Source: Nemertoderma westbladi
Taxonomy: Eukaryota; Animalia; Xenacoelomorpha
Assembly (NCBI GenBank): GCA_032718475.1
Contig: JAUCBJ010007222.1
Coordinates: 1 to 35,998 of the forward strand
Direction of reading: 5' to 3'
DNA: 35,998 bases
Every line of letters begins with the position of its first letter. Positions within the stretch are counted from its first letter, which is position 1. The notes beneath the pieces were generated by a model. That model saw nothing but the letters and a program-made list of their open reading frames with translations, searched no databases and was not told the origin of the DNA. Shown here piece after piece: positions 4,448 through 34,195 of this stretch. Both the position numbers and the translations under genes were made by a program.

Positions 4448-5737
4448 ATGACGGAATTGATAGAAGATGACCTTGGTATTAGAGAGCGATATACTCTACC
4501 TTTACAAGCGTTTGTGGATAGCTTGATACGCGGTGAAGCCGATCCGACTATTACGGAGGACGATGGTCGTTATATCGAACCGCCGATGTCCCAAGAGCAA
4601 CTTACGTGTGAATTGGACTATCGAAAATTAACCGCTCGCTATACGCATCGTAATGGTACGTATATGGACTTCTTAACTACCGGCCATCCTATCGATTTAC
4701 AGGATACGGACGATGTAGACACCGAAAGGGAAATGGTTCTATTTAAATATCATACCCAGCGGCGTCGTAACGATAAACCGAGAATAGATCACGAAAATTC
4801 TATTCGTAACAGACTGGGAAGACGAACCAATATGTCTGGAATCTGAAGAGATTCAGCCTATCGCGCTCGGAACAACGACAACGATTACATCCTAGAATGG
4901 TATCAAGGTCCACAGTGTCTCACTGCGTACGATTATCGCCATGCCAACTATGTTTCTCGGCAACGTTGTCGGTTATGCGCATCGAGAGACCATGTTACGC
5001 CCATGGACACAAACGTCCGCTGTTCCTATTTCCACGAACAACCGGCGATGGAAATTTATTGCGCGTATTGCAGATTTAATAATTTGCATATTTTTGCGGT
5101 TTGCCCTCAATTTATGACTCAATGTCACCACTGTCAACTAAAGGGACACGCCAGTTTCGATTGCCCTTTTTAATCGCGATTTGGAAAGCGTAGATGAAAT
5201 GATCACACTACGTTACATTAGAGCTTGGGAAGCGAACGCTGATTTATATCGTGATTCGCGCCATCGCTATTATCCTGGACGCGCTTACGAAGGAATTTAT
5301 GCGTTCCATCCTTATCTATTCGCTTCTGTCGAACAGAAATCACGCATATCGAGTTACAGGAAGTATATCGACGGCCTTACGAGTACCGAGCCCGCGAACG
5401 CGAGTTGGAAAGAACCATTAAACCAAGGAAGTTTCTAACTGCCTATGGTCCACCCACGGCCCTCGTTCAGACCACTCGTAAAGGACCCGTAAGAGCGGCT
5501 GTCTTGAAACGAGCTCTCAAAGCCGTTAGACCCCTCTCCCCGGACGTTGATGTCAATCAACCCAGTACTTCGACCGGCGGATATACCGATCGCAATCCCA
5601 TACCTTCTGATGCAATCATATTGCACCCTTCACCCAGGAGTTATAGCCCTCCTCGTAAAGTGGCTCGCCCCAAAGAGAAAAGGACTCTTGCTAGCTTTAA
5701 AAAACTGCGTAAACGCCGTCCGCGCAAGAAAGACTAG
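4448..5737 (+). pseudogene. Decayed ~430-codon accessory ORF with three CCHC-like zinc knuckles and a basic C-terminal tail, probably retroelement-borne
   Basis: ORF 4448-4846 continues past TGA (4844-4846) in the same frame into CRLCASRDH-x9-C, CAYCRFNNLHIFAVC and CHHCQLKGHASFDC (4967-5164). A +1 shift in the T5 run at 5167-5171 joins ORF 5181-5438. A compensating shift returns to the original frame, ending KKLRKRRPRKKD*. Confidence 0.6.
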
Positions 5738-10658: not shown

Positions 10659-12211
10659 GGGTTTGACTAAATACGCCACCGACAACCACCGACACCTTTC
10701 GCATACCACAAGTAAAATCGCAAACCGACAGTATACCAACAACTTCGGCAATGTTAGTAAACTATTTCAGTACATCTGTACATGGTTATACAATTTTTTT
10801 TTCCAATCCAAATATTTATAACAAATTATATTGTCCACTGTCGGCCTGTTGTCGGTGGTGTAATTAGTCATGATAATTTCTTTAATAGCCTATATAATAC
10901 CGCCTTCATAAATTATCTGTTTTAAATTATTATATTGCATACCGTACCGGTAACGTACCTAATGGTAAAAATCGTTAGTGTTTTTCATATGTCGGTGGTG
11001 GTATATTTCTGCGGTATCCGTTCCTATGCTCTGACATACAGTACAGTGCAATACAATTCCGAAATTTATTACTTTACATACACCTGCACATTGTGTGCAG
11101 TAATTGGTATTTACCTAAATGATGTAGGCCTAAACTAAAGTGAAGGAAGGAAACAAGAAACAACTGAAGCTCCTTTCTCTCTTGGATGTTACCGGAGAAG
11201 AATGGTTGCAGGTTGCCCAACACAATCTCCCAAGGATGACCACTTCATAATCATAACTATGTATTCACCCTTTTCTGTATCCCCTTACTGCCTTAAGCCA
11301 GGCGACATATTGCACTTTTGGATTTGTTAACCTAAGACAGTCTGACTACCACCGACAAAAACTAATAATAATAGCAACACACCGACATATGAAAAACACT
11401 CACGATTTTTACCATTACGCTATGCAATATAATAATTTAAAACAAGATAATATATGAAGGCGGTATTATATTTTAAAGAAATTATCATGAATAATTACAC
11501 CACCGACAACAGGCCAACAGTGGACATGGACAATATACTTTGTTACGGTCCTACGAATTACCCCAAAATACCCCAAAACACCCCAAAATACCCCAAAACA
11601 CCCCAAAAGACCCCAAAATAGTATAAAACTACCCCAAAATACCCCAAAATAGTTTAGAATTACCCCAAAATACCCCAAAATAGTTTAGAATTACCCCAAA
11701 ATACTTTTTTTTCAGCCTTTGTTTTGGAAATTTAATTTACCCCAAAATATGGCAAAATGACGAATTACCCCAAAATAATGACGAATTACCCCAAAATAAT
11801 TAAAAAATTTTTCTTCACTCTCGTTTATTGTTTTGGTTAAAAAAACTTGCCACTGTAACCTGCTCCTTTCCCTCGCTGTTAAAAAACATGGTTAGCTTAT
11901 TTTGGGGTATTTTGGGGTAATTTTTTAGCCTTTTTGGGGTATTTTGGGGTAATATTTGACTATTTTGGGGTATTTTGGAGTATTTTGGGGTATTTTGGGG
12001 TGTTTTGGGGTATTTTGGGGTAATTCGTAGGACCCCTTTGTTATAAATATTTGGAGTTGGACTGGAAATAAAAATTGTATAATCATGTACCGGTACTGAA
12101 ATAGTTTACTAACATTGCCGAAGTTGTCGGTATACTGTCGGTTTGCGATCTTACCTGTCGGTTTGTGTCGGTGGTATGCGAAAGGTGTCGGTGGCGTATT
12201 TAGTCAAATCC
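10659..12211. mobile_element. Foldback-type non-autonomous DNA transposon with ~340-bp TIRs
   Basis: Left arm 10659-~11000 is the reverse complement of ~11378-12211 once the nested MITE is removed. Ends GGGTTTGACTAAATACGCC / GGCGTATTTAGTCAAATCC. 8-bp TSD ATTTTTAA at 10651-10658 and 12212-12219. Confidence 0.85.
11546..12035. mobile_element. MITE with CCCCAAAATA minisatellite TIRs, nested in the right arm of the foldback element
   Basis: Ends CGGTCCTACGAATTACCCC / GGGGTAATTCGTAGGACCC. 10-bp tandem units are inverted between the arms. 8-bp TSD CTTTGTTA at 11538-11545 and 12036-12043. Confidence 0.88.
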
Positions 12212-13284: not shown

Positions 13285-14358
13285 ATGACGAATCTTATCG
13301 AAACAATCGAGATTTCCGGTTCACTTGATAGTTTAAATGATTCCGAGTCCGGCCGAACCCCAAAACGCCACAGAATTGTGAGCGAAAACTCCACGAAGCA
13401 GGAACCTAACGAGAAACGAACCTGCCAACCCGAAAACCCTTCGGGCGAACCGTTCGACACATTCGTAACCGCCTACGTATCCGCAAACAACACGCCGTCA
13501 ACGAGCCCCACACCTGAGGCAACGGAGGAGGACCAAAAGAAATCAGAGTTCTCCGACGGACTCCAGTTTATATCCCACATCCAGGAGAAAGTCGTCGAAG
13601 TTTCCTCGTTAAACCCGAATGCGAGGGAGTTCTCTATGCCGAAGTCATTCCGCGAGCGTTTAAACGGCGCGGTTGTTAACGGGGACGCCGCCTTGCTGAG
13701 CACCTCGATGCCCTCTGGGATGGGTCGGCGGTCCTTCAACACGGCGGATCTTATAGGCCCGGAGATCCGCTACATCCCGGTGACCCCCTCGCTGTACGGC
13801 GCCCCCCTGCTCGCCCCCCACTCCCTGGGCCCCGCTCCCCCCTCCCCCGAAATCGAGCGGCCCTGGGTGCTGACCGCCTTCGGTAGGAAGCTCGCTTGTC
13901 TGCAGTCCATCGCCGTCGGACGACTCGGGAACTTTATCGCCCCGTTTCAGTTTTCCGTCACCGATTTCAACGTTCTTTCCCAGGACCTCATGGAAACCAA
14001 CGGGAATCTTTACTCTCACGTTTTGGACCCGCAGTGGCTCGCGTGGTCTTACCGCTCCACCGTTATACTCGCGGACATTATCCGACATTCCTCCGACATC
14101 GTCTGCCTGCAGGAAGTCAACGAGGTCCATTTCTACGACTTCTTCCAGCCCAAAATGCGCCAACTCGGCTACACCTGCGTGTATAAGAAGCGACGCGGGG
14201 ACAAGCCCGACGGTTGCGCCACGTTCGTTCGGAGCAGCGTGTTCGAGGTGCTACACGTACAGAAGGTTGAGTACTACGTGTCGGATCGCTGCGTTCTAGA
14301 TCGCGATAATATCGCGCTCATACTCACACTGAAACCAAACTTCCCGAAGAACGTTAAG
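13285..14358 (+). CDS. angel: Angel-family (CCR4-like EEP phosphatase/nuclease) protein, coding exon 1 of 5
   Basis: Kozak-like CACCATG at 13285. Low-complexity N-terminus, then FNVLSQDL...LY...LAWSYR, DIVCLQEV, YKKRRGDKPDGCATF and LDRDNIALI, typical of Angel. Donor AAG|GTTGGT, phase 0. An additional upstream exon cannot be excluded. Confidence 0.9.
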
Positions 14359-14842
14359 GTTGGTACGACTACGCTTATAGCCTACTGTTATGTTATATTC
14401 AGATTACTTTATTTCCAGGGTAGAGTAGATAAATATAAATTAGATATTTTTTGTAGGCCTAAGAAGATTTTTTGCAGGATAATATACATGCAGGATAACA
14501 TAACTCTGGCAGACCCATAAAAGTCAACATTTTTGTTAAGATATACAATCTATTGAATCATATTATCTAGGCCTATTCAATATATTCCCCAAAGTAGAAC
14601 TTCTACACAGAAATGATGAATACGGTACGCTGATAACGTATTATAGGCTCTAAACTACTAGATTGAACGTAAAATATCTAAATGAAACTATCAAGGTGAA
14701 TTAATTTCACCGTAGAAATGTTGAATATTTGTAATGAAATATTGAATGATTAGATGTAATAATTACTTTCTACAGGGGGAGGGGGGGGGGGGGGGGTATT
14801 ACAAATCTACTTAATTTAGCAATCATGTCTCATTTATTAGCA

Positions 14843-14956
14843 ATGTGTGACAGGGGGGGAGTCGAGCCAGCGTAACACTTTGTGACAGAAGGGGGTGGGG
14901 GGGGGGGGGGGGGTCAAAAATCGGGAAATTTGCGTGACATACTTTATGAACACCCC
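14843..14956 (-). mobile_element. One-ended MITE fragment (possibly PIF/Harbinger-like)
   Basis: Minus strand GGGGTGTTCATAAAGTATGTCACGC followed by a C-run and repeated GTCACA motifs, resembling common invertebrate MITE ends. No partner TIR seen. Confidence 0.4.
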
Positions 14957-15430
14957 GTGATCTTTAAATATTGTTGCAACATGGGAGCGACTAAGTTCTT
15001 GTAAATCATCATATAATGCAGCAAAGCTGCTAAACATCTGACAAGCCACTCCACTACACCACTGCGGTGAAATTGTCTTGTGAAATTCGAAAGCATTAAT
15101 AAAAATAGAGTATAATATACCGGTATATATCAGTACCAAATATCAAAGGAATTCCATGGATGGATAGGCCTATATTTTAGGGAAATTGGTGATAACATCC
15201 GAAATTCCACAAAATATATTGTTTTATATTTGAATTCATTTATAATTAAATCAATTATATATTACTATTGTTATAAAGAGTAGGGTAGTTTAAAGTGTTT
15301 ATATGTACGGTACGTGCTTGATACATGCCTCACAACATATTGTATATGTGTGAGTTATTTAGGAAAATAACATGACTGATTGATTTACAGCCATGAAATT
15401 CATATTCGTTTTCCCTACTGGTTAAGTAAT

Positions 15431-17589
15431 GGTCCATTCCACGAGAAGTGTTCCCAGGGGAAAAAATATTTTTTACTTCCTATCACGCCATTGCATATCT
15501 TATAATATACATAGAAGATCAAATTTTCTAGAACAGTGATTGTTTCTTAGTCATTCCATGTTATATTGAAAATATTTGACTTCAAAGTTTGCCATAATAT
15601 TGCAGTTATCAAAATAAAAATTGCACTTATTATGAATTTGGCTGGAAATGATAAAAAGATTAATGTTTACTAAAACCGTTCTTGTCTAAGTATTAAAGTC
15701 GAATGTAAGGAAAAACATCCAAATTGTAATTCTGGATAATATAGTTGTGACCAACTTTGCGAATGAAATGTTACTTTTCGTTTGTAACACACGTAACATA
15801 ATATAACTAAAATTTTCAATTTCTAAGCTTTCACTGCATTTGGTAAGTCATGGTTTGGTTAAGCATACAAAGTAAGAATGTTATTTGCTCTAAAATGCCA
15901 CAAAGAGTAAAGTCTGTGAATAATCCAGTACAACTTACAAGACAATTAAAAAATGTAACACACGTAACATGTTACGTGTGTTACATGTATGAATTTCAAA
16001 GTTATATAAAATAATTCAAGAATATAATAACATCAATTAGAAATTATATACCATTCATTAAGGGCGATTCATAGTTACCATGATGTCGCATCAAACATCA
16101 CTTTAACAAGTGCTGCAAAATACCACGTCTCGACTGCGAGATCCGCTATGCTCTCTACCTAAATGACCTACCTTAATTTTTAATTAATATAAATCCTTTT
16201 ATCCGGTTATGTGCCTTTCTTTCTTTTTTTATCTAATACTAACACAATACATCGTTCTCTACTTTTACTGAAAGTGCAACTAAAATTATATTCTTTAATT
16301 CTTCATAATTTTTCCTTGTGGAAAATATACGCCCCATTTGATTCATTAAGGGCGATTCACACGGGATAAGAATGAGTCATGCCTAGTCATGAAACTTGAG
16401 TACTGACAGCTACCCAATGAAAAAAAGTACACCATAATAAAAATGGAAATCTTTCTCTTTTGATTTGTTATACTTAAGTTTCAGGACTGGTCACGAGTCA
16501 TTCTTACCTCCAGTGTGAATCCCCCTTAATGAATGGTATATAATTTCTAATTGAAGTTATTATATCTCATTGAAATATTTGTAAATAAATATATACAAAT
16601 GTCTCATAACATGTTACGTGTGTTACATTTTTTAATTATCTCGTAAGTTGTACTGGATTATTCACAGACTTTACTCTTTGTGGCATTTTAGAGCAAATAA
16701 CATTCTTACTTTGTATGCTTTAACCAAACCATGGCTTACCGAATGTAGTGAAAGCTTAGAAATTGCAATTTTTAGTTATATTATGTTACGTGTGTTACAA
16801 ACGAAAAGTAACATTTCATTCGCAAAGTTGGTCACAACTATATTATCCAGAATTACATTTTGGATGTTTTTCTTCACATTAGGCATTAATACTTACTTAT
16901 ATACGGGGTAATGACAAGACCAATTTTAGTAAATATCAATTTCTTATCATTTTGAGCCAAATTCAAAATATGGGCAATTTTCATTGTGCTAACTGCAATA
17001 TTAGGGCAATCTTTGAAGTTAAACATTTACAATATAACATGGACTGACCAAAAAACAATCACTGTTCTAGAATATTTGATCTTCTATGTTTTATTATATA
17101 AAACATATATTTGTATACAATATGAATGAACATAATTTACTTTGCAAATGAAGTAGTGGTCTTAAATGTAACACACGTAAGGTAACACACGTAACGGAGG
17201 TCACTCGCATTTTTGGTCTACTACTTTAGTCAGAATTGGTTATATTACCTGAAACTATGTTATTTATCATTTTAGATATCTAATTATATCGGATAGTCAC
17301 TGCTCTGCATTACTAATACTCTTGATTTTCATGAAATTTAACGTACATTATTTGTCCATTTTTGGGTGCATTTCAAGTGTAACATACGTAACACTTTTCT
17401 AAATGCTTACCGGTACTGAGAATCTAATATTTACTTTTGTTCAATAATATTTCACATACACAACATGGAATAACCAAACAATTATACAGAAACTATAAGT
17501 TATTGTTTGTGAAGTGTTTTCTAATAAAATTTGCATGATGAACTTCAAAAATCGTATCAGGATGAAACACACGTAACATGGAATGGACC
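15431..17589. mobile_element. Non-autonomous DNA transposon with a large internal inverted repeat (intron 1)
   Basis: Termini GGTCCATTCCA / TGGAATGGACC with 4-bp TSD TAAT (15427-15430, 17590-17593). Arms ~15508-16071 and ~16516-17090 are reverse complements. Recurrent GTAACACACGTAAC motif. Superfamily uncertain (a 4-bp TSD is compatible with Sola). Confidence 0.75.
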
Positions 17590-18191
17590 TAATATGGAAT
17601 TTGGGGGGGGGGGGGGGGGGGGTTGTTATGTTTTTGAGGAGAGCAACTATGAAACAATTGAGACGATTTAAATAAGTTTTTGATATCCACTATTATTTTG
17701 TGGTAAACATTTGGCATATGGGCGTGCCGGAGTTGGTATACTGTAATTGAGTTTTAAGGTTTTAAGTTAACTGGTTTTCTACTTTAGTTCGGGATTAGAA
17801 TCCCAGTTCGGTGTCTGTCTGGTAAAATCATGTGCTATAGTGCCCCGTCGTTTAGTATTCGTGGAATATTGTTTTAACAGTGTTTTACACACATTGTCTA
17901 TGATGTTATCGTTATGTTTATGTTTACCAAGTCTGTTCCGAGAAACTCAGTTTTTGTTTATAAATGGGATAAATTGTTCACAATTAGCTTATAATATTCA
18001 ACTGATAGATTTGATAAGGTATGTCGGATTAAACATGCAAACCAACAAACACATTAGAAGGTCCTAATTGATTTTATTCAGCAATGACAAAAGGCTTTAC
18101 GGCCTCCAATATAAATAATTTTAACATTATGATAGTTCTTTTTATGTCAGGTACCGGTAGGGATGTTGATCACTTGTTTTAACCCTCACAG

Positions 18192-18751
18192 GTGAGTAAA
18201 GACATGCGCGATATGCGATTAATAGTCGCCAACACGCATCTGTTATTCAACCCGAAACGCGGAGATGTGAAACTCTCCCAGTTGGGGTTCCTAATGGCGG
18301 AGATCGAGCGACTCTCCTACAAAGAACGAACCCTCAAACTAAACGACAACTACCAACCGGTCCTCCTCTGCGGGGATCTGAGCGCGTCGCCTACGTCGCC
18401 GCTCTACACCTTCCTGCGCCGCGGCTTCCTCAAGTACGACGGCTTGGATTGCGCGGCGGTGAGCGGACAGCTGGTCGAGGACTGGCCGACGTCCAGCCGC
18501 CACCGGTACCTCCGGTACCCCATACTGCCGGAGCAACTGCGTATCAACGAGGATTGCCAGTACCTCGGCGCCTTGTTCCAGCGACGCAAGCGGCAGGAGA
18601 ACCGCGTGGAGCGGTCCATCAGCGAGAGCGAGGGGGTCGCCGTGGGCAACCGGCAGCGGTTGCTGAGCAGCGGGAGGAACACGCCCACCTTCTCGGTTGG
18701 GAGTCCGGTTCCCGATGAAGAGGATGAGGTGGTTGACCCGGACCCGGAGAA
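18192..18751 (+). CDS. angel: Angel-family protein, exon 2
   Basis: Acceptor ctcacag|, phase 0. Encodes VANTHLLFNPKRGDVKLSQL and LLCGDLSASP. Donor AA|GTGAGT, phase 2. Confidence 0.92.
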
Positions 18752-18900
18752 GTGAGTGTTTCTGTAGATTATTATGGCCTGTGGGTGACTTTATATCCTC
18801 CTGGATATATATTGTTTTAAAGTAAAACATGTTAACTGTTTTTTTCAGTAACTCTTAAATTCCAACTATCCTAAAAAGTTAAATATTTCCCCGTTTACAG

Positions 18901-19067
18901 AGCCGGCATGGCGGCTGCCATGGATTTCCTTGGATTGGACTCGAGCACTAAACCTAAACGAGTTTACTCTCGGGAGTTCCTGCTGGAGTTACGGGACAGT
19001 CCGTTATGCGAGGCCGAGCCTCCGGGCCTGTCCACCTTCCCACCCGAGATGCGTCAGCAAGGGGAAA
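18901..19067 (+). CDS. angel: Angel-family protein, exon 3 (contains eIF4E-binding-like motif)
   Basis: Acceptor tttacag| and donor A|GTGAGT. Phases 2/1 keep the frame between exons 2 and 4. Encodes KRVYSREFLLELRDSPLCEAEPPGL. Confidence 0.85.
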
Positions 19068-19207
19068 GTGAGTGGAGATTATCTCGAGATATATTTATTG
19101 GATAACATCTTTTTGTATCATTTATTGATGAAATAATGTTGTTTATTAAACTAACAATAATAGTTAGTCCCTCATACTATTATTATTTTCATACGCATCT
19201 CCTGTAG

Positions 19208-19354
19208 GTGAGGATTCGCCTATTCCCCCCAACGATGCCGACGACTTAGACGATCAGCCAGCCTCCATGGCGGAATACCTTCGTAGCACCTCGGATATGG
19301 TGTTACGTCACAAACTTAGATTCCTATCCGCCTTCGAACACCACCTAGTGGATG
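19208..19354 (+). CDS. angel: Angel-family protein, exon 4 (not in the ORF track)
   Basis: Acceptor cctgtag| and donor G|GTAAGT, phases 1/1. Encodes ...VLRHKLRFLSAFEHH, matching the CCR4/Angel LxHxxxLxSAY segment. Confidence 0.88.
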
Positions 19355-19860
19355 GTAAGTGTATATGTTTTTAGCTTTACTTAACCTTCTTTATTTTATA
19401 TTTTTTTCTAGTTTTATAATCTAGTACTTAATGAGATTACAGTCCGAGTTTAGACATGCAGTAGATAAGTAGACAGGCCTACAACTGTTAGCTACTGACC
19501 TGTGAACCGACACAGTAACGAAGGGGTCTGACTTGTATACTGGGGGACGGAACTGACATTAACTTGACGGTCAACCGACGCATAAAACATTATCATCCGT
19601 CTCATACAGTTAATTAGTTACACTTCATATAGAAATAGACAACTCTCTCATCCTGATGGGTTATGTAATATTATTACTAATATTTTAATATTCTTTATTG
19701 AATAAGCTGTCTCCAATAGCTCATTTATTTTGTTTGTCCGCTTTACTAATGTTGCAATTTGTGTAAACGTTGCGTTAGTGAGTTTGGTTCCTGTGGGATA
19801 TTATTTGAGGTGAGTAACTGACGTGTATGTCAGGGACCGGCGCGATTGAGAAAGTCTCAT

Positions 19861-20418
19861 GGAATCGCCGGACAATTTGCCCCCAATTACACTTACTCAC
19901 CAAGGCCCCTAGGAAAATTGCACAATAAATAAGGTTCCTAACTAGTAGTTTAGCATTCCTAACTTGTTACAATATTAAACAATAAAAAACCGTATTATTA
20001 TATTTAATAAAACATCCATGTTTGCTTATTTATGTGCTCATTAATGTCGATATTTTCCAACTGAAGTAATTCATTACAAAAAAATAAAATGCTGACGCGC
20101 TGAAGCCATTCAATTACTTCATAAAATGGCTATAGCTAGCATAAAGACAATCACAATCAATTTGTTCTAGAAAAAAAATCGTGCAATTGTTGAAAAACAC
20201 AGAAAAAGTTGAGTTGTTGTGTTGATGTGTTTAAGTGTTGATCAAGGGAAATATTACTTGAATTTCATAAAACCATAGAAAATATTCAAAGGATTTCAAG
20301 ATTTAAAATATATTTATTAAATAAAATATCGGGGGGCAATTATCCGGGGGGAAATTGTCCGGGGGCAATTGTACTGGGGGCAATTAATTGTCCGGGGGGC
20401 AATAATTGTCCTAGTTCC
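19861..20418. mobile_element. Degenerate MITE with GGGGGCAATTGTCC subterminal repeats
   Basis: Left GGAATCGCCGGACAATTTGCCCCC; right ~5 tandem GGGGGCAATT(G/A)TCC-like units ending CCTAGTTCC. No TSD found. Confidence 0.45.
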
Positions 20419-22400
20419 GTTCCAGGTAGGGGAAGGGAGGTGGCGAGACAATCAAAATGGTACCCCACTGGGGGGGGAATCAATACTCGCAGCTGTACGA
20501 GTAAGTTTGAACATTATCATGTGATATTGCTTCGTGACTGGATCTTGGTTTAAGAATATCCACCCACTATAACCTCACTGCTCCTTCCCCTAAATTAATA
20601 ATATCGTTATTGACTTTACTACCCAGATCTAATTTGCGAGTATATCCCCAGAAAGTCTCGCAGGGACGCAACTATAGTGATACAAAGCAATGGATGGGCC
20701 TGTGACATCTGGCATATATAAAAATAAATTAAACTGGACAAAGTGCCATACTGTATCTGTTTGCATTGTCTGAGACTGGCTACTTTACTTCCTGTTTGCC
20801 TATCATTATATTGATTCCCAGTTTTATCTGGCAGAATTACGTAATCTTTTAATTTGCTCTCTATTTAATTACCGCTAGTTTTTGGTTTCAGCAGTAATCC
20901 AATAGCATACCGCAATGTATTACCGGTACTTTAGTGATTTTATGTGTGATTTTATCTCACTGTAAACAAAACGGATACACTTTGTGTCATGGGCTGGAAA
21001 AATCCGCAGAATTTACCAGTAATGGTGCAAAGTGCAAATAACCTCATTAAAGTATTTATCAGGAGTTCCAGTTACTTACATAATATGCGGGTGTTAGAGG
21101 ATTATTAGAGGGATGTCGCTAAAGTCATATTTTTGACATCCGCTCGGATTCGGATGTCTATTAAATCTTACATATTTTTGCCTGACCTCCCTTTATAAAT
21201 ATTCTCCAAAATTTTTAATATTCTTATCTTTATCCTTATATTAATATTAGTATTAATATTAGTATTCCCCATATTCAAACAAGAGTCTAAGGTTATAGAA
21301 CAGAATAGGACATATTCTAACAATAATATATCAAACAAAATTATCGCCACCAGTGCTAATTCTTCATGCACCAGGACATAATGGATTTACTTCTGGCAAA
21401 GTTGTTATCCAATCTAGTAAGAAATAGTTTTGATTATTTTATATTTTGATAATTTAAGTTAAAAGCAAAAAATTTAAGACAAAAAATAATAATTATTTAA
21501 ATTTTAATTGAGTGTTTATCGTTGGATATTTATGGTATATAATTTGCGACAGTAAATACAGCCAGCCGGGACTGTAATAATTCAATAGAAATATACTTAT
21601 CAAATAAATTGTAACAATTGAAGAATGTTTTTTCTCCGAAAGGCTAAGTCTACACATATTATAGTGAGTATAGTATAGTAAACCGCACTACTATAAACCC
21701 ACCCCTAGAATTAATACTACCTAGCTACCGTTTAACCGTTATTACTTCTCTGGATGTAACACAACAGTACAATGTACATTTGTTTATATCTTGTCTCAAG
21801 GAATTTCCCTCCCAAATTATTACCTTATCGTTTCGTGTTTTCCACGAATATGTTAATTAATATAATATGATATTATAGTGATATCAGTGTTACTGGAAAC
21901 CGAAACCTGGTCTGGTACATTGCATAGTCTCAGTATAGATTGATCTACTGCTGAAATCTCCCTACTTTAATTAATGCTTTGTATTATAATATATCCATTA
22001 CCAAACACTTCGTGCCATTTCCATATATTACTTTTATAAAGCAGAAGATTTCATTAACATTAAAAGTCTCCCTCAGATTCATCCACTGCGAAAGTCTCCC
22101 TTTATCTACTATAGTACTTGGGAGCGTCTCCCTCGAGATTGTTACACTGCAGCAGCAGAAGCCTCCATTAACTAGTTTAACCGAAATTAAGCCGCTGTTA
22201 ACTAACGTTATTTCTCTAAGATAAGGTTGTGCAACAGACAACTTATAATTCCAATGTATAATTATATTATAAAGACTTGTGTTTCGGGGGTTGCAATGTA
22301 ATCTTAAATCTAATTCTTTAATCTTTTATAGAGGTCGGGAAATTGTATGGGCCATTTACCGTGGCTGATTGTGGCCACTTAATTTCAGTTTTTTCATATT

Positions 22401-23076
22401 TGTCACCCGCGTGACAATTATTTATCACCCGGGTGACAATTATTTATCACCCGGGTGACAATTATTTATCACCCGGGTGACAATTATTTATCACCGGGTG
22501 ACACTTATTTATCACCCGGGTGACAATTATTTATCACCCGGGTGACAATTATTTATCACCCGGGTGACAATTATTTATCACCCGGGTGACAATTATTTAT
22601 CACCCGGGTGACAATTATTTATCACCCGGGTGACAATTATTTATCACCCGGGTGACAATTATTTATCATCCGGGTGACAATTATTTATCACCCGGGTGAC
22701 AATTATTTATCACCCGGGTGACAATTATTTATCACCCGGGTGACAATTATTTATCACCCGGGTGACAATTATTTATCATCCGGGTGACAATTATTTATCA
22801 CCCGGGTGACAATTATTTATCACCCGGGTGACAATTATTTATCACCCGGGTGACAATTATTTATCACCCGGGTGACAATTATTTATCACCCGGGTGACAA
22901 TTATTTATCACCCGGGTGACAATTATTTATCACCCGGGTGACAATTATTTATCATCCGGGTGACAATTATTTATCACCCGGGTGACAATTATTTATCACC
23001 CGGGTGACAATTATTTATCACCCGGGTGACAATTATTTATCACCCGGGTGACAATTATTTATCACCCGAGTGACAA
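22401..23076 (+). repeat. 22-bp subterminal tandem array (~30 copies), unit TGACAATTATTTATCACCCGGG
   Basis: Directly visible and nearly invariant; contains the palindrome TCACCCGGGTGA. Confidence 0.97.
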
Positions 23077-23186
23077 ATACTGGTGTTTTTCAGCAATCAA
23101 TCTTTATCCCTACAGTATCATTATTTTCTTGCAGTGTCTGATCTGTCTGTCTGTATATTCAAGTGGTACAGTATTTCTTATTCATC

Positions 23187-23654
23187 ATGAGTCTAATTGA
23201 TAACGTTATTGAACGGTATTTCTGGTTGGGATTTAACTACAGTGAAATAGCACATCTTGTCAAAAAGGCATAAATATTTCTTCACGAACGATTCGACGTA
23301 GGTTGAATTCGTCAGGTCATACACGGATTTTAGTTAGATCCATTCGATTTTGATGCTATTGTTAGTGTTCTTGAAGTAGAATCCTTCAATCGGAAAACAG
23401 CGGGCTATAGACAATTGCAACGCATTCTGATGGATGACTACCATCTGTTTGCACCGCGAAAGGTAGTTGCATTAATATTGAAAATTGTAGACGTAACTGG
23501 TAGAATATCTCGAATCGGAAATAAACTCACAAGGCGAACTTACTTTTCGAAGGGGCCGAATTTTTTATTGCACATTGATGGTTGGGATAAACTGAAACCA
23601 TTTGGATTGACAGTGCACGGATCTGTGGATGGATATAGTCGAAAGATTGTTTGA
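23187..23654 (+). pseudogene. Degraded DDE/integrase-core transposase, N-terminal part
   Basis: MSLIDNVIERYFWLGFNYSEIAHL; frameshift; ISSRTIRRRL; GYRQLQRIL...VVALILKIVD; RRTYFSKGPNFLLHIDGWDKLKPFGLTVHGSVDGYSRKIV*. The HIDG..KL...HG..DG.SR motif is typical of this transposase family. The rest of the catalytic domain is absent. Confidence 0.85.
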
Positions 23655-24298
23655 AGCGTCGTTGTTAGAAGCCTCACATTGTTAGAAGCGATAAAGGCAC
23701 CGAAAATGTTAACGTCGAAGCAATACATCGATATTTCAGATCCTTCAATGATGAACAATTATTACAGAAGTGCTCAGTATTTATTTTTTATTTATTTATT
23801 TATCAGTGCTCAGTAAGTATTTATAAAAAAAAATTGCAGTGAACTAAAGAAAAAAAGTGAATTAAAAGTTAAATACGTACATTTGGGTTTAATTTATATT
23901 CATAAATGACATCACTGTCATAAGGGGGGCGGGGTGTGGGGGGGGGGGGTGGGTGGCTGTATCCTCTGACATATTCTCATAACTGAGCCTCGTGCTGCGC
24001 GAAGGACCCACAAATGTTTTTCAACTGTAACCGGGTATCTTTTACCTGATATTATAACACTGTTTTTAAACAATATAAGCAATAATTCCGTTTAAAATAA
24101 CAGTTATTTATATGACAAATTAATAAAATTACGAACAAACAATCACGAAAACTGACCGATATTACAAAGAAAAATATTTATTGATGATTTAAAAATTATA
24201 ATCTAATCATGTATATAAGTGTAGAGGTACAGTGTTCTAACAGTTAATTGCAATATCTAAACAGTTATATTGTCTAAACTAACAGTAATACAGTATTC

Positions 24299-24625
24299 TC
24301 AAGGCAATGCAAACCCCAATGTATTCAACATATCCTCCATGAGACGGTCACAGAATACTTTGCTGGGCCCCAACAAATAACGGCCATTTATCGGAAAATG
24401 AATTGTTAACGCACATGTGTCCGCATGTACACGTCTTGCGCAATCTGATGTACGGTAAAATTCTAACTTTCATTCACCTGAAAAAATAGGAAACCGAGAC
24501 CCCGAACCGAACTGAAGCACAACACGCAAAGTAAGTGTGATTGAATTAATCCCTCCTTTGAGCAAGTCATTGACATCGGCTTTCATCGACATTACGTATT
24601 TACATGGATGTACCGGTTCCATGAA
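24299..24625 (-). pseudogene. HECT E3 ubiquitin ligase C-lobe remnant (G2E3-like) inside the transposon
   Basis: Hand translation: ...ITLTLRVVLQFGSGSRFPIFSGE*KLEFYRTSDCARRVHADTCALTIHFPINGRYLLGPSKVFCDRLMEDMLNTLGFALP*. This matches the HECT pattern L.F.TGS..P / AxTC...L.LP / C-terminal GF. One internal stop at 24472-24470. Confidence 0.7.
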
Positions 24626-24663
24626 CTACAGTATAAAGTATACAGTTACCACCCTTTGCAGAA

Positions 24664-25012
24664 TTGTCACTCGGGTGATAAATAATTGTCACCCGGGTGA
24701 CAAATAATTGTCACCCGGGTGATAAATAATTGTCACCCGGGTGATAAATAATTGTCAACTGTGTGACAAATAATTGTCACCCGGGTGATAAATAATTGTC
24801 ACCCGGGTGACAAATAATTGTCATCCGCGTGACAAATAATTCTCACCCGGGTAATAAATAATTGTCACCCGGGTGATAAATAATTGTCACCCGGGTGATA
24901 AATAATTGTCACCCGGGTGATAAATAATTGTCACCCGGGTGATAAATAATTGTCACCCGGGTGATAAATAATTGTCACCCGGGTGATAAATAATTGTCAC
25001 CCGGGTGACAAA
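24664..25012 (-). repeat. Inverted copy of the 22-bp array (~16 copies)
   Basis: Unit AATAATTGTCACCCGGGTGATA is the reverse complement of the left array. Confidence 0.97.
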
Positions 25013-25954
25013 TATAAAAAATCTGAAATTAAGTGGCCACAATCAGCCACGGTAGCCATTTGACATGCATTTATTTTTAATATGTAATGAATGACATTAT
25101 TGATGTAACAATGTATTGATTGGCAAGCTGTGTTGTTCGAGGTGTTTGTTATTGTACAGTTATAATAGGAAGGGATCTAGGGGTCTTAACCTCGAATGAT
25201 AAGTTTATTTTACCGAAAATAACTTATCTTTTATGGAAGCAATTTTAGGACTAATCCCATCACATGCTTATTACTTTTTAACCGGGTAGTGTAAAATTTA
25301 GGAATCGTAATTTTTATTGAAATAAATATCTCATATCTCGAATGACATTATGTCCGGTTTACTGCAACCGACTTTTCAAAGACGTAGTTCGCTTGTAATG
25401 ATAACCGCTAAATATCTCCACGTCCTCAAAAATAACAAATCAAATACTAAGTGTTTATAAATATATAAAAGTAAAATGTTAAGTTTAATAGTTATAAAAT
25501 TATGTAAAGTGGTTATCATAGAAAAGTACAACAAACGAACTGAATCTTTCAATGTGGGTAGTGGGATGTCGGGAAAGTAGTAGAATAAGAAAATGTAACC
25601 AATCAGTATCCTATCCGCTCACCCGTTAACTACTAACTGTGATATTTTCATTATTGCAACATGAACATATTCATATATATTTTTACAACAGAAGCTTCCA
25701 TTAATTTTGGAATTGTCTCCCTCAAGATTGTTCCACTTCGGAAGCCTCCCTCCATTAACTAAATACTTTTTTTTAACCTCATAAGTCTCATTTATTTACA
25801 TAGATAATAAAAACTGTACAAAAAATTCAGATAATATTAAATAATACCCACCACCAGCTGACGTTACTAGGCATTAGGCAACAAATGAAATGTAAGATGG
25901 AGATGAGCGGCATCAATTAACCGTTAACTAATCCTTTGTATTGTCTCCCTCTAG

Positions 25955-26241
25955 ATTGTTCCACTGCGGAAGTCTCCACCTACCACGCGCGGGTGTGCGA
26001 GAACCTCGACTACGTCCTCTACACGGCGGCCCCGGACGGCCACACCGAAGGGCCACTGAAGCTGGTCGGGCGTCTGGGTCTCCCGTCGTCAGCCGTGGTC
26101 GTCGCAGCGGGCGGACTCCCCAACCGGAAACACGGGAGCGACCACCTCCCGCTGGTCGCCAAGTTCGCGATCAGCAACGAACCAACGGGTCGGGGGATGT
26201 CCCACGCCGAGGGCCGTAAGAAACGCACGATCACGCTGTAA
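25955..26241 (+). CDS. angel: Angel-family protein, last exon
   Basis: Acceptor ccctctag|, phase 1. Encodes EVSTYH...LDYVLY...GGLPNRKHGSDHLPLVAKF. Spliced CDS is 1074+560+167+147+287 = 2235 nt = 744 aa plus stop. Confidence 0.92.
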
Positions 26242-26740: not shown

Positions 26741-29700
26741 TAAATCTCCCGTTCGCTACGGATGTCCGTCCCTGTAGGTCCCTTGTAAATCTCCCGTTCG
26801 CTACGGATGTCCGTCCCTGTAAGTCCCTTGTAAATCTCCCGTTCGCTACGGACGTCCGTCCCTGTAGGTCCCCTGTAAATCTCCCGTTCGCTACGGATGT
26901 CCGTCCCTGTAAGTCCCCTGTAAATCTCCCGTTCGCTACGGATGTCCGTCCCTGTAGGTCCCCTGTAAATCTCCCGTTCGCTACGGATGTCCGTCCCTGT
27001 AAGTCCCCTGTAAATCTCCCGTTCGCTACGGACGTCCGTCCCTGTAGGTCCCCTGTAAATCTCCCGTTCGCTACGGATGTCCGTCCCTGTAAGTCCCCTG
27101 TAAATCTCCCGTTCGCTACGGATGTCCGTCCCTGTAGGTCCCCTGTAAATCTCCCGTTCGCTACGGATGTCCGTCCCTGTAGGTCCCCTGTAAATCTCCC
27201 GTTCGCTACGGATGTCCGTCCCTGTAAGTCCCTTGTAAATCTCCCGTTCGCTACGGACGTCCGTCCCTGTAGGTCCCCTGTAAATCTCCCGTTCGCTACG
27301 GACGTCCGTCCCTGTAAGTCCTTTGTAAATCTCCCGTTCGCTACGGACGTCCGTCCCTGTAGGTCCCTTGTAAATCTCCCGTTCGCTACGGACGTCCGTC
27401 CCTGTAGGTCCCTTGTAAATCTCCCGTTCGCTACGGATGTCCGTCCCTGTAAGTCCCTTGTAAATCTCCCGTTCGCTACGGACGTCCGTCCCTGTAGGTC
27501 CCCTGTAAATCTCCCGTTCGCTACGGATGTCCGTCCCTGTAAGTCCCTTGTAAATCTCCCGTTCGCTACGGACGTCCGTCCCTGTAGGTCCCCTGTAAAT
27601 CTCCCGTTCGCTACGGATGTCCGTCCCTGTAAGTCCCTTGTAAATCTCCCGTTCGCTACGGATGTCCGTCCCTGTAAGTCCCTTGTAAATCTCCCGTTCG
27701 CTACGGACGTCCGTCCCTGTAGGTCCCCTGTAAATCTCCCGTTCGCTACGGACGTCCGTCCCTGTAAGTCCCTTGTAAATCTCCCGTTCGCTACGGATGT
27801 CCGTCCCTGTAGGTCCCTTGTAAATCTCCCGTTCGCTACGGACGTCCGTCCCTGTAAGTCCCTTGTAAATCTCCCGTTCGCTACGGATGTCCGTCCCTGT
27901 AAGTCCCTTGTAAATCTCCCGTTCGCTACGGACGTCCGTCCCTGTAAGTCCCTTGTAAATCTCCCGTTCGCTACGGACGTCCGTCCCTGTAAGTCCCTTG
28001 TAAATCTCCCGTTCGCTACGGATGTCCGTCCCTGTAAGTCCCTTGTAAATCTCCCGTTCGCTACGGACGTCCGTCCCTGTAAGTCCCTTGTAAATCTCCC
28101 GTTCGCTACGGATGTCCGTCCCTGTAAGTCCCTTGTAAATCTCCCGTTCGCTACGGACGTCCGTCCCTGTAAGTCCCTTGTAAATCTCCCGTTCGCTACG
28201 GATGTCCGTCCCTGTAAGTCCCTTGTAAATCTCCCGTTCGCTACGGATGTCCGTCCCTGTAAGTCCCTTGTAAATCTCCCGTTCGCTACGGACGTCCGTC
28301 CCTGTAAGTCCCTTGTAAATCTCCCGTTCGCTACGGATGTCCGTCCCTGTAAGTCCCTTGTAAATCTCCCGTTCGCTACGGACGTCCGTCCCTGTAAGTC
28401 CCTTGTAAATCTCCCGTTCGCTACGGACGTCCGTCCCTGTAAGTCCCTTGTAAATCTCCCGTTCGCTACGGATGTCCGTCCCTGTAAGTCCCTTGTAAAT
28501 CTCCCGTTCGCTACGGACGTCCGTCCCTGTAAGTCCCTTGTAAATCTCCCGTTCGCTACGGATGTCCGTCCCTGTAAGTCCCTTGTAAATCTCCCGTTCG
28601 CTACGGATGTCCGTCCCTGTAAGTCCCTTGTAAATCTCCCGTTCGCTACGGACGTCCGTCCCTGTAAGTCCCTTGTAAATCTCCCGTTCGCTACGGATGT
28701 CCGTCCCTGTAAGTCCCTTGTAAATCTCCCGTTCGCTACGGACGTCCGTCCCTGTAAGTCCCTTGTAAATCTCCCGTTCGCTACGGACGTCCGTCCCTGT
28801 AAGTCCCTTGTAAATCTCCCGTTCGCTACGGATGTCCGTCCCTGTAAGTCCCTTGTAAATCTCCCGTTCGCTACGGACGTCCGTCCCTGTAGGTCCCTTG
28901 TAAATCTCCCGTTCGCTACGGACGTCCGTCCCTGTAAGTCCCTTGTAAATCTCCCGTTCGCTACGGACGTCCGTCCCTGTAAGTCCCTTGTAAATCTCCC
29001 GTTCGCTACGGACGTCCGTCCCTGTAGGTCCCGTTCGCTACGGACGTCCGTCCCTGTAAGTCCCTTGTAAATCTCCCGTTCGCTACGGATGTCCGTCCCT
29101 GTAAGTCCCTTGTAAATCTCCCGTTCGCTACGGACGTCCGTCCCTGTAAGTCCCTTGTAAATCTCCCGTTCGCTACGGACGTCCGTCCCTGTAAGTCCCT
29201 TGTAAATCTCCCGTTCGCTACGGATGTCCGTCCCTGTAAGTCCCTTGTAAATCTCCCGTTCGCTACGGATGTCCGTCCCTGTAAGTCCCTTGTAAATCTC
29301 CCGTTCGCTACGGATGTCCGTCCCTGTAAGTCCCTTGTAAATCTCCCGTTCGCTACGGATGTCCGTCCCTGTAAGTCCCTTGTAAATCTCCCGTTCGCTA
29401 CGGACGTCCGTCCCTGTAGGTCCCGTTCGCTACGGACGTCCGTCCCTGTAGTCCCTTGTAAATCTCCCGTTCGCTACGGATGTCCGTCCCTGTAAGTCCC
29501 TTGTAAATCTCCCGTTCGCTACGGACGTCCGTCCCTGTAGTCCCTTGTAAATCTCCCGTTCGCTACGGATGTCCGTCCCTGTAAGTCCCTTGTAAATCTC
29601 CCGTTCGCTACGGATGTCCGTCCCTGTAAGTCCCTTGTAAATCTCCCGTTCGCTACGGATGTCCGTCCCTGTAAGTCCCTTGTAAATCTCCCGTTCGCTA

Positions 29701-32700
29701 CGGACGTCCGTCCCTGTAAGTCCCTTGTAAATCTCCCGTTCGCTACGGACGTCCGTCCCTGTAGGTCCCGTTCGCTACGGACGTCCGTCCCTGTAAGTCC
29801 CTTGTAAATCTCCCGTTCGCTACGGATGTCCGTCCCTGTAAGTCCCTTGTAAATCTCCCGTTCGCTACGGATGTCCGTCCCTGTAAGTCCCTTGTAAATC
29901 TCCCGTTCGCTACGGACGTCCGTCCCTGTAGGTCCCGTTCGCTACGGACGTCCGTCCCTGTAAGTCCCTTGTAAATCTCCCGTTCGCTACGGATGTCCGT
30001 CCCTGTAAGTCCCTTGTAAATCTCCCGTTCGCTACGGACGTCCGTCCCTGTAGGTCCCGTTCGCTACGGACGTCCGTCCCTGTAAGTCCCTTGTAAATCT
30101 CCCGTTCGCTACGGATGTCCGTCCCTGTAAGTCCCTTGTAAATCTCCCGTTCGCTACGGACGTCCGTCCCTGTAGGAATCTCCCGTTCGCTACGGACGTC
30201 CGTCCCTGTAAGTCCCTTGTAAATCTCCCGTTCGCTACGGATGTCCGTCCCTGTAAGTCCCTTGTAAATCTCCCGTTCGCTACGGATGTCCGTCCCTGTA
30301 AGTCCCTTGTAAATCTCCCGTTCGCTACGGACGTCCGTCCCTGTAGGTCCCGTTCGCTACGGACGTCCGTCCCTGTAAGTCCCTTGTAAATCTCCCGTTC
30401 GCTACGGATGTCCGTCCCTGTAAGTCCCTTGTAAATCTCCCGTTCGCTACGGATGTCCGTCCCTGTAAGTCCCTTGTAAATCTCCCGTTCGCTACGGACG
30501 TCCGTCCCTGTAGGTCCCGTTCGCTACGGACGTCCGTCCCTGTAAGTCCCTTGTAAATCTCCCGTTCGCTACGGATGTCCGTCCCTGTAAGTCCCTTGTA
30601 AATCTCCCGTTCGCTACGGATGTCCGTCCCTGTAAGTCCCTTGTAAATCTCCCGTTCGCTACGGACGTCCGTCCCTGTAGGTCCCGTTCGCTACGGACGT
30701 CCGTCCCTGTAAGTCCCTTGTAAATCTCCCGTTCGCTACGGATGTCCGTCCCTGTAAGTCCCTTGTAAATCTCCCGTTCGCTACGGACGTCCGTCCCTGT
30801 AGGTCCCTTGTAATCTCCCGTTCGCTACGGACGTCCGTCCCTGTAAGTCCCTTGTAAATCTCCCGTTCGCTACGGATGTCCGTCCCTGTAAGTCCCTTGT
30901 AAATCTCCCGTTCGCTACGGATGTCCGTCCCTGTAAGTCCCTTGTAAATCTCCCGTTCGCTACGGACGTCCGTCCCTGTAGGTCCCGTTCGCTACGGACG
31001 TCCGTCCCTGTAAGTCCCTTGTAAATCTCCCGTTCGCTACGGATGTCCGTCCCTGTAAGTCCCTTGTAAATCTCCCGTTCGCTACGGACGTCCGTCCCTG
31101 TAGGTCCCGTTCGCTACGGACGTCCGTCCCTGTAAGTCCCTTGTAAATCTCCCGTTCGCTACGGAGTCCGTCCCTGTAGGTCCCGTTCGCTACGGACGTC
31201 CGTCCCTGTAAGTCCCTTGTAAATCTCCCGTTCGCTACGGATGTCCGTCCCTGTAAGTCCCTTGTAAATCTCCCGTTCGCTACGGACGTCCGTCCCTGTA
31301 GGTCCCGTTCGCTACGGACGTCCGTCCCTGTAAGTCCCTTGTAAATCTCCCGTTCGCTACGGATGTCCGTCCCTGTAAGTCCCTTGTAAATCTCCCGTTC
31401 GCTACGGACGTCCGTCCCTGTAGGTCCCGTTCGCTACGGACGTCCGTCCCTGTAAGTCCCTTGTAAATCTCCCGTTCGCTACGGATGTCCGTCCCTGTAA
31501 GTCCCTTGTAAATCTCCCGTTCGCTACGGACGTCCGTCCCTGTAAGTCCCTTGTAAATCTCCCGTTCGCTACGGATGTCCGTCCCTGTAAGTCCCTTGTA
31601 AATCTCCCGTTCGCTACGGATGTCCGTCCCTGTAAGTCCCTTGTAAATCTCCCGTTCGCTACGGACGTCCGTCCCTGTAAGTCCCTTGTAAATCTCCCGT
31701 TCGCTACGGATGTCCGTCCCTGTAAGTCCCTTGTAAATCTCCCGTTCGCTACGGATGTCCGTCCCTGTAAGTCCCTTGTAAATCTCCCGTTCGCTACGGA
31801 CGTCCGTCCCTGTAGGTCCCGTTCGCTACGGACGTCCGTCCCTGTAAGTCCCTTGTAAATCTCCCGTTCGCTACGGATGTCCGTCCCTGTAAGTCCCTTG
31901 TAAATCTCCCGTTCGCTACGGATGTCCGTCCCTGTAAGTCCCTTGTAAATCTCCCGTTCGCTACGGATGTCCGTCCCTGTAGGTCCCTTGTAAATCTCCC
32001 GTTCGCTACGGATGTCCGTCCCTGTAAGTCCCTTGTAAATCTCCCGTTCGCTACGGACGTCCGTCCCTGTAAGTCCCTTGTAAATCTCCCGTTCGCTACG
32101 GATGTCCGTCCCTGTAAGTCCCTTGTAAATCTCCCGTTCGCTACGGATGTCCGTCCCTGTAAGTCCCTTGTAAATCTCCCGTTCGCTACGGACGTCCGTC
32201 CCTGTAAGTCCCTTGTAAATCTCCCGTTCGCTACGGATGTCCGTCCCTGTAGGTCCCTTGTAAATCTCCCGTTCGCTACGGATGTCCGTCCCTGTAAGTC
32301 CCTTGTAAATCTCCCGTTCGCTACGGACGTCCGTCCCTGTAAGTCCCTTGTAAATCTCCCGTTCGCTACGGATGTCCGTCCCTGTAAGTCCCTTGTAAAT
32401 CTCCCGTTCGCTACGGATGTCCGTCCCTGTAAGTCCCTTGTAAATCTCCCGTTCGCTACGGATGTCCGTCCCTGTAAGTCCCTTGTAAATCTCCCGTTCG
32501 CTACGGACGTCCGTCCCTGTAAGTCCCTTGTAAATCTCCCGTTCGCTACGGATGTCCGTCCCTGTAAGTCCCTTGTAAATCTCCCGTTCGCTACGGACGT
32601 CCGTCCCTGTAAGTCCCTTGTAAATCTCCCGTTCGCTACGGATGTCCGTCCCTGTAAGTCCCTTGTAAATCTCCCGTTCGCTACGGACGTCCGTCCCTGT

Positions 32701-34195
32701 AAGTCCCTTGTAAATCTCCCGTTCGCTACGGATGTCCGTCCCTGTAAGTCCCTTGTAAATCTCCCGTTCGCTACGGATGTCCGTCCCTGTAAGTCCCTTG
32801 TAAATCTCCCGTTCGCTACGGACGTCCGTCCCTGTAAGTCCCTTGTAAATCTCCCGTTCGCTACGGATGTCCGTCCCTGTAAGTCCCTTGTAAATCTCCC
32901 GTTCGCTACGGACGTCCGTCCCTGTAGTCCCTGTAAATCTCCCGTTCGCTACGGACGTCCGTCCCTGTAAGTCCCTTGTAAATCTCCCGTTCGCTACGGA
33001 CGTCCGTCCCTGTAAGTCCCTTGTAAATCTCCCGTTCGCTACGGATGTCCGTCCCTGTAAGTCCCTTGTAAATCTCCCGTTCGCTACGGACGTCCGTCCC
33101 TGTAAGTCCCTTGTAAATCTCCCGTTCGCTACGGATGTCCGTCCCTGTAAGTCCCTTGTAAATCTCCCGTTCGCTACGGACGTCCGTCCCTGTAGGTCCC
33201 GTTCGCTACGGACGTCCGTCCCTGTAAGTCCCTTGTAAATCTCCCGTTCGCTACGGACGTCCGTCCCTGTAAGTCCCTTGTAAATCTCCCGTTCGCTACG
33301 GATGTCCGTCCCTGTAAGTCCCTTGTAAATCTCCCGTTCGCTACGGATGTCCGTCCCTGTAAGTCCCTTGTAAATCTCCCGTTCGCTACGGACGTCCGTC
33401 CCTGTAAGTCCCTTGTAAATCTCCCGTTCGCTACGGATGTCCGTCCCTGTAAGTCCCTTGTAAATCTCCCGTTCGCTACGGACGTCCGTCCCTGTAGGTC
33501 CCGTTCGCTACGGACGTCCGTCCCTGTAAGTCCCTTGTAAATCTCCCGTTCGCTACGGACGTCCGTCCCTGTAAGTCCCTTGTAAATCTCCCGTTCGCTA
33601 CGGATGTCCGTCCCTGTAAGTCCCTTGTAAATCTCCCGTTCGCTACGGACGTCCGTCCCTGTAAGTCCCTTGTAAATCTCCCGTTCGCTACGGACGTCCG
33701 TCCCTGTAAGTCCCTTGTAAATCTCCCGTTCGCTACGGACGTCCGTCCCTGTAAGTCCCTTGTAAATCTCCCGTTCGCTACGGACGTCCGTCCCTGTAAG
33801 TCCCTTGTAAATCTCCCGTTCGCTACGGATGTCCGTCCCTGTAAGTCCCTTGTAAATCTCCCGTTCGCTACGGACGTCCGTCCCTGTAGGTCCCGTTCGC
33901 TACGGACGTCCGTCCCTGTAAGTCCCTTGTAAATCTCCCGTTCGCTACGGATGTCCGTCCCTGTAAGTCCCTTGTAAATCTCCCGTTCGCTACGGATGTC
34001 CGTCCCTGTAGTCCCCTGTAAATCTCCCGTTCGCTACGGACGTCCGTCCCTGTAGTCCCTGTAAATCTCCCGTTCGCTACGGATGTCCGTCCCTGTAAGT
34101 CCCTTGTAAATCTCCCGTTCGCTACGGACGTCCGTCCCTGTAAGTCCCTTGTAAATCTCCCGTTCGCTACGGATGTCCGTCCCTGTAGGTCCCTT
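26741..34195. repeat. 45-bp satellite array (~7.45 kb, roughly 170 units), unit TAAATCTCCCGTTCGCTACGGA(C/T)GTCCGTCCCTGTA(A/G)GTCCC(T/C)TG
   Basis: Directly visible; three variable positions plus a recurrent 32-bp deletion variant. Confidence 0.99.

Follow-up and report, generated by a model that had tools for sequence, protein, structure and literature searches.

The window analysed here covers positions 1 to 35,998 of contig JAUCBJ010007222.1 (assembly GCA_032718475.1) from the xenacoelomorph Nemertoderma westbladi. On its plus strand, at 13285-26241, it carries a five-exon gene for an Angel-type EEP protein with two candidate docking motifs: a PAM2-like motif in exon 1 and a 4E-BP-like segment in exon 3. 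Our preferred reading, in which we have about even confidence, is that this protein docks through eIF4E and PABP, much as human Angel1 does, on a subset of mRNAs under surveillance. Three points appear to be new. The first is an eIF4E-type motif, published as vertebrate-only, in an Angel that our trees place outside the vertebrates. The second is the putative pairing of 4E-BP-like and PAM2 motifs in two lineages, and the third an altered catalytic motif in the protein described here.

Gene model

The gene was modelled from the DNA alone by splice sites and reading frame. The five-exon structure proposed in an earlier note on this DNA held up: the exons join into 744 open codons, each of the four introns has GT-AG ends and the intron phases (0, 2, 1, 1) agree. 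GC content is 53-66% in exons compared with 27-35% in introns; exon 3 has 59% GC, and 64% at third codon positions (GC3). We are highly confident that the transcript is spliced as predicted. The two peptides reported in the earlier note are in place as well: the PAM2-like peptide SSLNPNAREFSMP at 13603-13641 (amino acids 107-119) and the eIF4E-type peptide KRVYSREFLLELRDSP at 18956-19003 in exon 3 (amino acids 564-579, with Y567). The features of the gene are as follows.

13285..14358, plus strand: exon 1, amino acids 1-358; acidic low-complexity N-terminus, PAM2-like motif and N-terminal half of the EEP domain (N229; LQEV, E277)
13603..13641, plus strand: PAM2-like motif, amino acids 107-119; L3, N4, P5, A7, E9, F10, Met at 12; Pfam PAM2 E 0.13
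18192..18751, plus strand: exon 2, amino acids 359-545; EEP core (THLLFNP, H374; GD, D420) and start of a long insertion; ANGEL2 6RVZ E 6e-24
18381..18383, plus strand: Ser422, codon AGC; falls on the Asn of GDxN, which 230 of 231 relatives keep
18901..19067, plus strand: exon 3, 167 nt, phase 2 to 1; within the EEP insertion
18956..19054, plus strand: 4E-BP-like segment, amino acids 564-596; canonical motif (Y567), Ser-Pro matching S65-P66, and a linker that can be aligned with 4E-BP1 as far as P79
19208..19354, plus strand: exon 4; last, acidic part of the insertion, then back into the EEP fold (HxLxFxSxF)
25955..26241, plus strand: exon 5; the C-terminal catalytic residues D668 (in DY) and D712/H713 (in SDH), then the stop codon; ANGEL2 E 1e-7

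Skipping exon 3 alone (167 nt) or exons 3 and 4 together (314 nt) breaks the reading frame, which rules out exon 3 as an optional cassette. To bypass exon 3, splicing would have to use one of just two weak alternative donors of phase 1 near the end of exon 2. Therefore, the full enzyme with catalytic exon 5 most likely carries the eIF4E-type motif.

The 4E-BP-like segment

The bare YxxxxL-phi pattern was present in 46% of 20,000 shuffles of this protein. It is therefore uninformative by itself and was dropped as evidence. The longer segment was recovered in three separate comparisons. In an unbiased profile scan, the Pfam eIF_4EBP profile matched 33 residues with an E-value of 8.7e-5. All six PDB matches to exon 3 were 4E-BP1 or Thor (best E 0.005), and the alignment runs without gaps onto residues 51-80 of 4E-BP1. 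A profile made from 14 vertebrate-type Angel1 segments also recovered the exon 3 segment, with an independent E-value (iE) of 6e-4. The exon 3 segment and the vertebrate-type Angel1 segments occupy one shared insertion in the EEP domain. When the same 4E profile was run on 38 named invertebrate Angels (from echinoderms, molluscs, a brachiopod, arthropods, nematodes and a rotifer), none scored.

Similarity to 4E-BP1 extends past the canonical motif. The Ser-Pro in the register of S65-P66 is kept, and only 1 of 28 vertebrate-type segments has Ser-Pro there. This S65-like Ser-Pro may put eIF4E binding under phosphorylation control. In the lateral-site region the linker can be aligned to 4E-BP1 until P79, with L and F in the hydrophobic positions.

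Three points count against eIF4E docking. The Pfam score, 22.8 bits, is below the curated cut-off of 24. The PGVT residues of the non-canonical site are missing, and deleting them from 4E-BP1 weakens binding by two orders of magnitude (PMC8558276). Also, in HELZ a YxxxxL-phi motif next to a PAM2 bound eIF4E only indirectly (PMC3135610). We consider it probable that the segment binds eIF4E.

The PAM2-like motif

PAM2 has been defined by Phi3, N/S4, P/V5, A7, E9, F10 and P12 (PMC2854688). Six of these seven conserved positions fit in exon 1 (L3, N4, P5, A7, E9 and F10), and position 12 is Met instead of the usual Pro. For comparison we used 281 relatives, gathered from overlapping lists of 3, 22, the best 150 of 2,589 and the best 120 of 242 proteins; the set takes in some plant and protist CCR4-like proteins. 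The strict core L[NS]xxAxEF arose in 0.2% of shuffles and, within the resulting set of 282 proteins, is confined to the window protein. Shuffle rates for certain other regular expressions, tuned on sequences already seen, are optimistic, and the conclusions rest instead on the Pfam and PDB matches and on the profile and shuffle tests given here.

The looser evidence is less favourable to a PABP contact. The looser published definition arises in 7% of shuffles, and among named invertebrate Angels it is present in 5 of 38, roughly chance level. The unbiased scan with Pfam PAM2 gave E 0.13, and no PDB match to the 30-residue PAM2 region was found at E-values up to 10. The PAM2 assignment is thus plausible from its sequence and weaker than that of the eIF4E motif. 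On balance we lean towards the view that it would bind the MLLE domain of PABP.

As a separate observation, protein P0157, an Angel clustering with gastropod sequences, contains a PAM2-like peptide at amino acids 580-592 and no eIF4E segment; Pfam gave this peptide no score.

A second Angel lineage with both motifs

The pairing of the two motifs recurs in a second Angel lineage of 11 proteins that are 74-90% mutually identical, and this recurrence supports a function. The 4E segment is present in 11 of 11 members, and PAM2 in all eight that reach that far. Among 29 hand-picked Angels, the only ones with matches to both Pfam families were the two members of this lineage. The gene for one member is intronless and lies on a contig of 3,438 bases, so the motif pairing is no artefact of gene modelling. 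The earlier note's claim that both motifs are present holds: unbiased scans found both, although both scores in the window protein are below the curated Pfam cut-offs.

The earlier note had also suggested comparing the conservation of each motif with that of its flanks, and this comparison was made in the second lineage. Identity was 0.98 in the PAM2 window versus 0.51 and 0.59 in the adjoining blocks, and 0.92 in the 4E window. However, 37 of 475 N-terminal windows were conserved as well as PAM2, and 90 of 472 as well as the 4E segment. Motif conservation in this lineage is therefore support and not proof. A further point that weakens the parallel is that the EEP domain there follows both motifs, unlike the arrangement in the window protein.

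These data bear on an alternative in which the eIF4E motif is genuine and the PAM2 incidental, so that the protein would be a plain non-vertebrate partner of eIF4E like Angel1. The low Pfam score (12.5 bits against a curated cut-off of 20) and the residue other than Pro at position 12 are what this alternative would predict. Of 282 proteins, 21 fit the loose definition, compared with 12.7 expected from shuffles, and strict PAM2 occurs in no vertebrate-type Angel1 of the collected set. An incidental PAM2 is harder to reconcile with the rarity of the strict core in shuffles. It also leaves aside that the sole other non-vertebrate lineage with a 4E segment has PAM2 too, invariant in eight of eight members between flanks at 0.51-0.59. 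We regard this alternative as a minority possibility and prefer docking through both motifs.

In the same survey, protein P0026 (1,091 amino acids) was seen to have two tandem Angel EEP domains.

Angel family membership and catalytic residues

The assignment to Angel made in the earlier note was borne out. ANGEL2 (PDB 6RVZ) was the best PDB match for exon 1 (E 2e-34), exon 2 (E 6e-24) and exon 5 (E 1e-7). ANGEL2 scored 122 bits on exon 1, 88 on exon 2 and 35 on exon 5, whereas nocturnin, CNOT6 and PDE12 reached at most 44, at most 33 and 15, respectively. By these matches, the window protein belongs to the Angel (CCR4d/e) subfamily of EEP enzymes, which is also characterised by cyclic phosphatase rather than deadenylase activity.

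Catalytic residues were aligned in the 231 relatives with a complete domain; 50 partial or duplicated ones were left out. Seven of the eight residues of the catalytic set N, E, H, D, N, D, D, H are kept (N229, E277, H374, D420, D668, D712 and H713). The Asn of GDxN is replaced by Ser422; among the 231 relatives this position is Asn in 230 and Thr in one. Activity is therefore perhaps reduced. The change, as read from the predicted protein, weakens a claim of full activity and does not touch the family placement. Ser422 may also reflect a single-base variant or a mistake in the assembly. Full phosphatase activity seems to us somewhat doubtful; the activity in question is that of a 2',3'-cyclic phosphatase (Pinto 2020, as cited in PMC13247085, PMC9525292 and bioRxiv 10.1101/2022.04.28.489582). 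The earlier note's proposal that the protein brings an RNA 3'-end enzyme to the mRNA does not stand as worded, given the loss of a near-invariant Asn from the catalytic motif.

The altered residue suggests another alternative, a catalytically crippled scaffold. Such a protein would replace eIF4G on eIF4E, hold PABP and close a repressed loop, with an EEP pocket that binds RNA ends. We take N212 of APE1 to be the position of the GDxN Asn and of Ser422. The N212A mutant of APE1 has lower activity and binds its substrate as the wild type does (PMC6735896), a behaviour such a scaffold could share. The segment also scores 22.8 bits on the Pfam 4E-BP profile versus 13.7 on the Angel1 profile, two profiles that are not directly comparable. 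Yet the seven other catalytic residues are all retained in the window protein, the second lineage keeps the GDxN Asn, and Ser422 itself may be an error or a variant. In addition, human Angel1 neither displaces eIF4G in cells nor lowers bulk translation (PMC3763552). A crippled scaffold therefore appears quite unlikely to us.

Two observations count against the docking reading. No close orthologue was found among the 281 relatives; the nearest match to exon 1, from the best 150 of 2,589 proteins, was 52% identical over the EEP part alone. Ser422, Asp227 and Arg304 are each present in none of the 231 relatives. Separately, a metagenome scan with exon 1 gave no relative among 194 pattern matches. 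In the ESM Atlas there was no usable match for amino acids 1-215, and for the relative P0004 just generic Angel clusters. If the gene were an ordinary or decaying Angel copy, with motifs that are chance look-alikes in disorder or products of a wrong gene model, one would expect just such substituted conserved sites, sub-threshold Pfam scores and lack of an orthologue showing conservation. Against this stand the 744 open codons in five exons with high GC3 and the frame-essential exon 3. The recovery of the 4E segment by Pfam, PDB and the Angel1 profile also speaks against it, as does the failure of all 38 named invertebrate Angels to score on the 4E profile. We consider a decaying copy or a wrong model very improbable, and keep to the reading of a docking Angel protein.

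Phylogeny and origin of the motifs

Trees were built with FastTree, and in smaller runs with IQ-TREE, on subsets of 125, 74 and 42 rows. In all three finished trees the window protein is outside the vertebrate Angel clade (support of Shimodaira-Hasegawa type, 98). It is also apart from the second motif-bearing lineage. Approximately unbiased (AU) tests gave p 0.099 for grouping the window protein with Angel1, p 0.445 with all vertebrate Angels and p 0.368 with the second lineage. Because none of these groupings is rejected, we claim neither convergence nor shared ancestry. Finding the motif in an Angel beyond the vertebrate clade, and at another position in a second lineage, could mean that the motif is older and was lost many times, or that Angel was recruited to eIF4E repeatedly.

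Hagfish Angel1 (P0229) and its close relative P0129 have a divergent eIF4E segment (iE 8e-9 and 6e-7, respectively). They branch ahead of the Angel1/Angel2 split in two trees, which hints that Angel2 lost the eIF4E motif.

Proposed mechanism and published background

In the docking reading, the exon 3 segment would contact the dorsal face of eIF4E, and the PAM2 would contact the MLLE domain of PABP. These two weak contacts would tether a pocket for RNA ends to some of the cytosolic messenger ribonucleoproteins, for example in surveillance of faulty messages. The pocket delivered would be of the 2',3'-cyclic-phosphatase type, possibly weakened. That one protein molecule holds eIF4E and PABP together on a single mRNA is a stronger claim, and we think it unlikely.

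The mechanism requires a protein in the cytosol, and the window protein is likely cytosolic. The N-terminus in exon 1 is acidic and has no obvious mitochondrial presequence. In a crude count of 32 proteins, N-termini were acidic in both motif-bearing lineages and basic in several Angel2 and invertebrate Angels. Acidic N-termini are what a cytosolic role would need, and an upstream exon beyond our model is possible. As published, ANGEL2 and fly Angel are in the mitochondrial matrix and ANGEL1 is on the outer membrane (PMC9525292).

In human Angel1, Tyr506 of the C-terminal EEP region mediates binding to eIF4E, and changing Tyr to Ala abolishes this binding (PMC3763552). Angel-eIF4E binding is thus not new. 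The earlier note had considered the combination of motifs to be undescribed; the eIF4E half of this was published in 2013 (PMC3763552), and the pairing with PAM2 was not found in the literature we covered. In that literature, mostly without subscription journals and PAM2 surveys, we found no PAM2 in any Angel and no invertebrate Angel with an eIF4E motif. The same 2013 paper reports the Angel eIF4E motif as a vertebrate innovation, in an extra 111-nt exon of unknown origin, and human Angel1 as insensitive to mTOR inhibition (PMC3763552). Human Angel1 co-purifies with eIF4E, PABPC, LARP4 and ATXN2, and non-stop decay requires its catalytic Glu (bioRxiv 10.1101/2022.04.28.489582); the word PAM2 occurs 0 times in the text of that preprint. 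In the window protein, PAM2 would give a direct contact to PABP, where human Angel1 is known to co-purify with PABPC.

The earlier note had gone further and proposed a repressor that competes with eIF4G and closes the loop. Human Angel1 displaces eIF4G in extracts and not in cells, and bulk translation is unchanged (PMC3763552). Since eIF4G in cells and bulk translation are left unaltered, a general closed-loop repressor is disfavoured. A bolder form can be stated: at least two non-vertebrate animal lineages may have made Angel a single-chain clamp from cap to tail, in which a phosphorylatable S65-type 4E-BP-like segment and PAM2 take the place of eIF4G on selected mRNAs and deliver an RNA 3'-end pocket, one that is partly disarmed in the window protein. 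We would not expect it to be right; if it were, the link between Angel and eIF4E would be ancient or repeatedly gained, and no vertebrate invention.

Because PAM2 accompanies the eIF4E-type motif in each of the two non-vertebrate cases, it offers a possible route by which Angel might reach poly(A)-bound mRNA, a question that also concerns human Angel1 in non-stop decay. The Ser at a near-invariant site of the catalytic motif is a natural probe of whether Angel needs catalysis in surveillance.

Repeats around the gene

Intron 4 contains a mobile-element-like insert at 22397-25014. A 22-bp unit forms two arrays in inverted orientation, with 31 copies at 22397-23076 and 16 at 24662-25014, and between them is a broken integrase-core frame at 23334-23654 (Pfam rva_4, E 3e-7). 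The acceptor junction of exon 5 has two degenerate copies in intron 4, at 22128-22151 and 25717-25740 (three matches in the window, 0 expected), and a weaker third copy was seen by eye near 22070. These copies are possibly duplications linked to the insert. In intron 1, the segments at about 15400-16060 and 16560-17590 are by eye mutual reverse complements, forming a long inverted-repeat element.

Outside the gene, a 7.5-kb satellite at 26741-34195 begins 500 bp past the stop codon; it has a 45-bp unit in about 171 copies with a higher-order period of 135 bp. Upstream, broken frames at 4430-5737 that include a zinc knuckle of CCHC type (Pfam zf-CCHC_3, E 0.0035, below the cut-off) are probably a retroelement remnant. 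Inverted arrays of a 10-bp unit at 11559-11704 and 11898-12022 resemble the ends of a small non-autonomous element.

Comparison with known systems

In Leishmania, PAM2 reportedly docks a cap-side factor on PABP in the eIF4E4-PABP1 pair; eIF4E4 is itself the cap-binding protein, unlike the Angel of the window. PAN3, Tob, eRF3 and HELZ resemble the arrangement proposed for the window protein: they recruit an RNA-processing activity to PABP by a PAM2 that lies in disordered sequence. None of them is an Angel (PMC2854688, PMC3135610). In HELZ the YxxxxL-phi motif overlaps the PAM2, with eIF4E binding merely indirect (PMC3135610).

4E-BP1/2 and Thor (5BXV, 4UED and 4UE8) share with the window protein an ungapped stretch of 29-30 residues, including Y54, L59, R63, S65-P66 and L75 in the numbering of 4E-BP1. 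However, the window segment sits in an enzyme and is without the T70-P site, PGVT or the rest of 4E-BP.

ANGEL2 (6RVZ/6RW0) is the best structural match for the three EEP-bearing exons and has seven of the eight catalytic residues in common with the window protein. ANGEL2 and Drosophila Angel are described as mitochondrial-matrix phosphatases without an eIF4E motif (PMC9525292). In contrast, the N-terminus of the window protein is acidic, and the protein also has a 150-residue insertion and putative motifs for cytosolic partners.

Vertebrate ANGEL1 (human Q9UNK9) has, like the window protein, an Angel EEP domain with a YxxxxL-phi segment in a shared insertion, as seen in fish and hagfish Angel1. 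The motif exon of the window gene is 167 nt and asymmetric (phase 2 to 1), compared with the reported 111 nt, and the segment is without the GVTD tail. The window protein has in addition a putative PAM2, Ser-Pro in the S65 register and Ser for the GDxN Asn.

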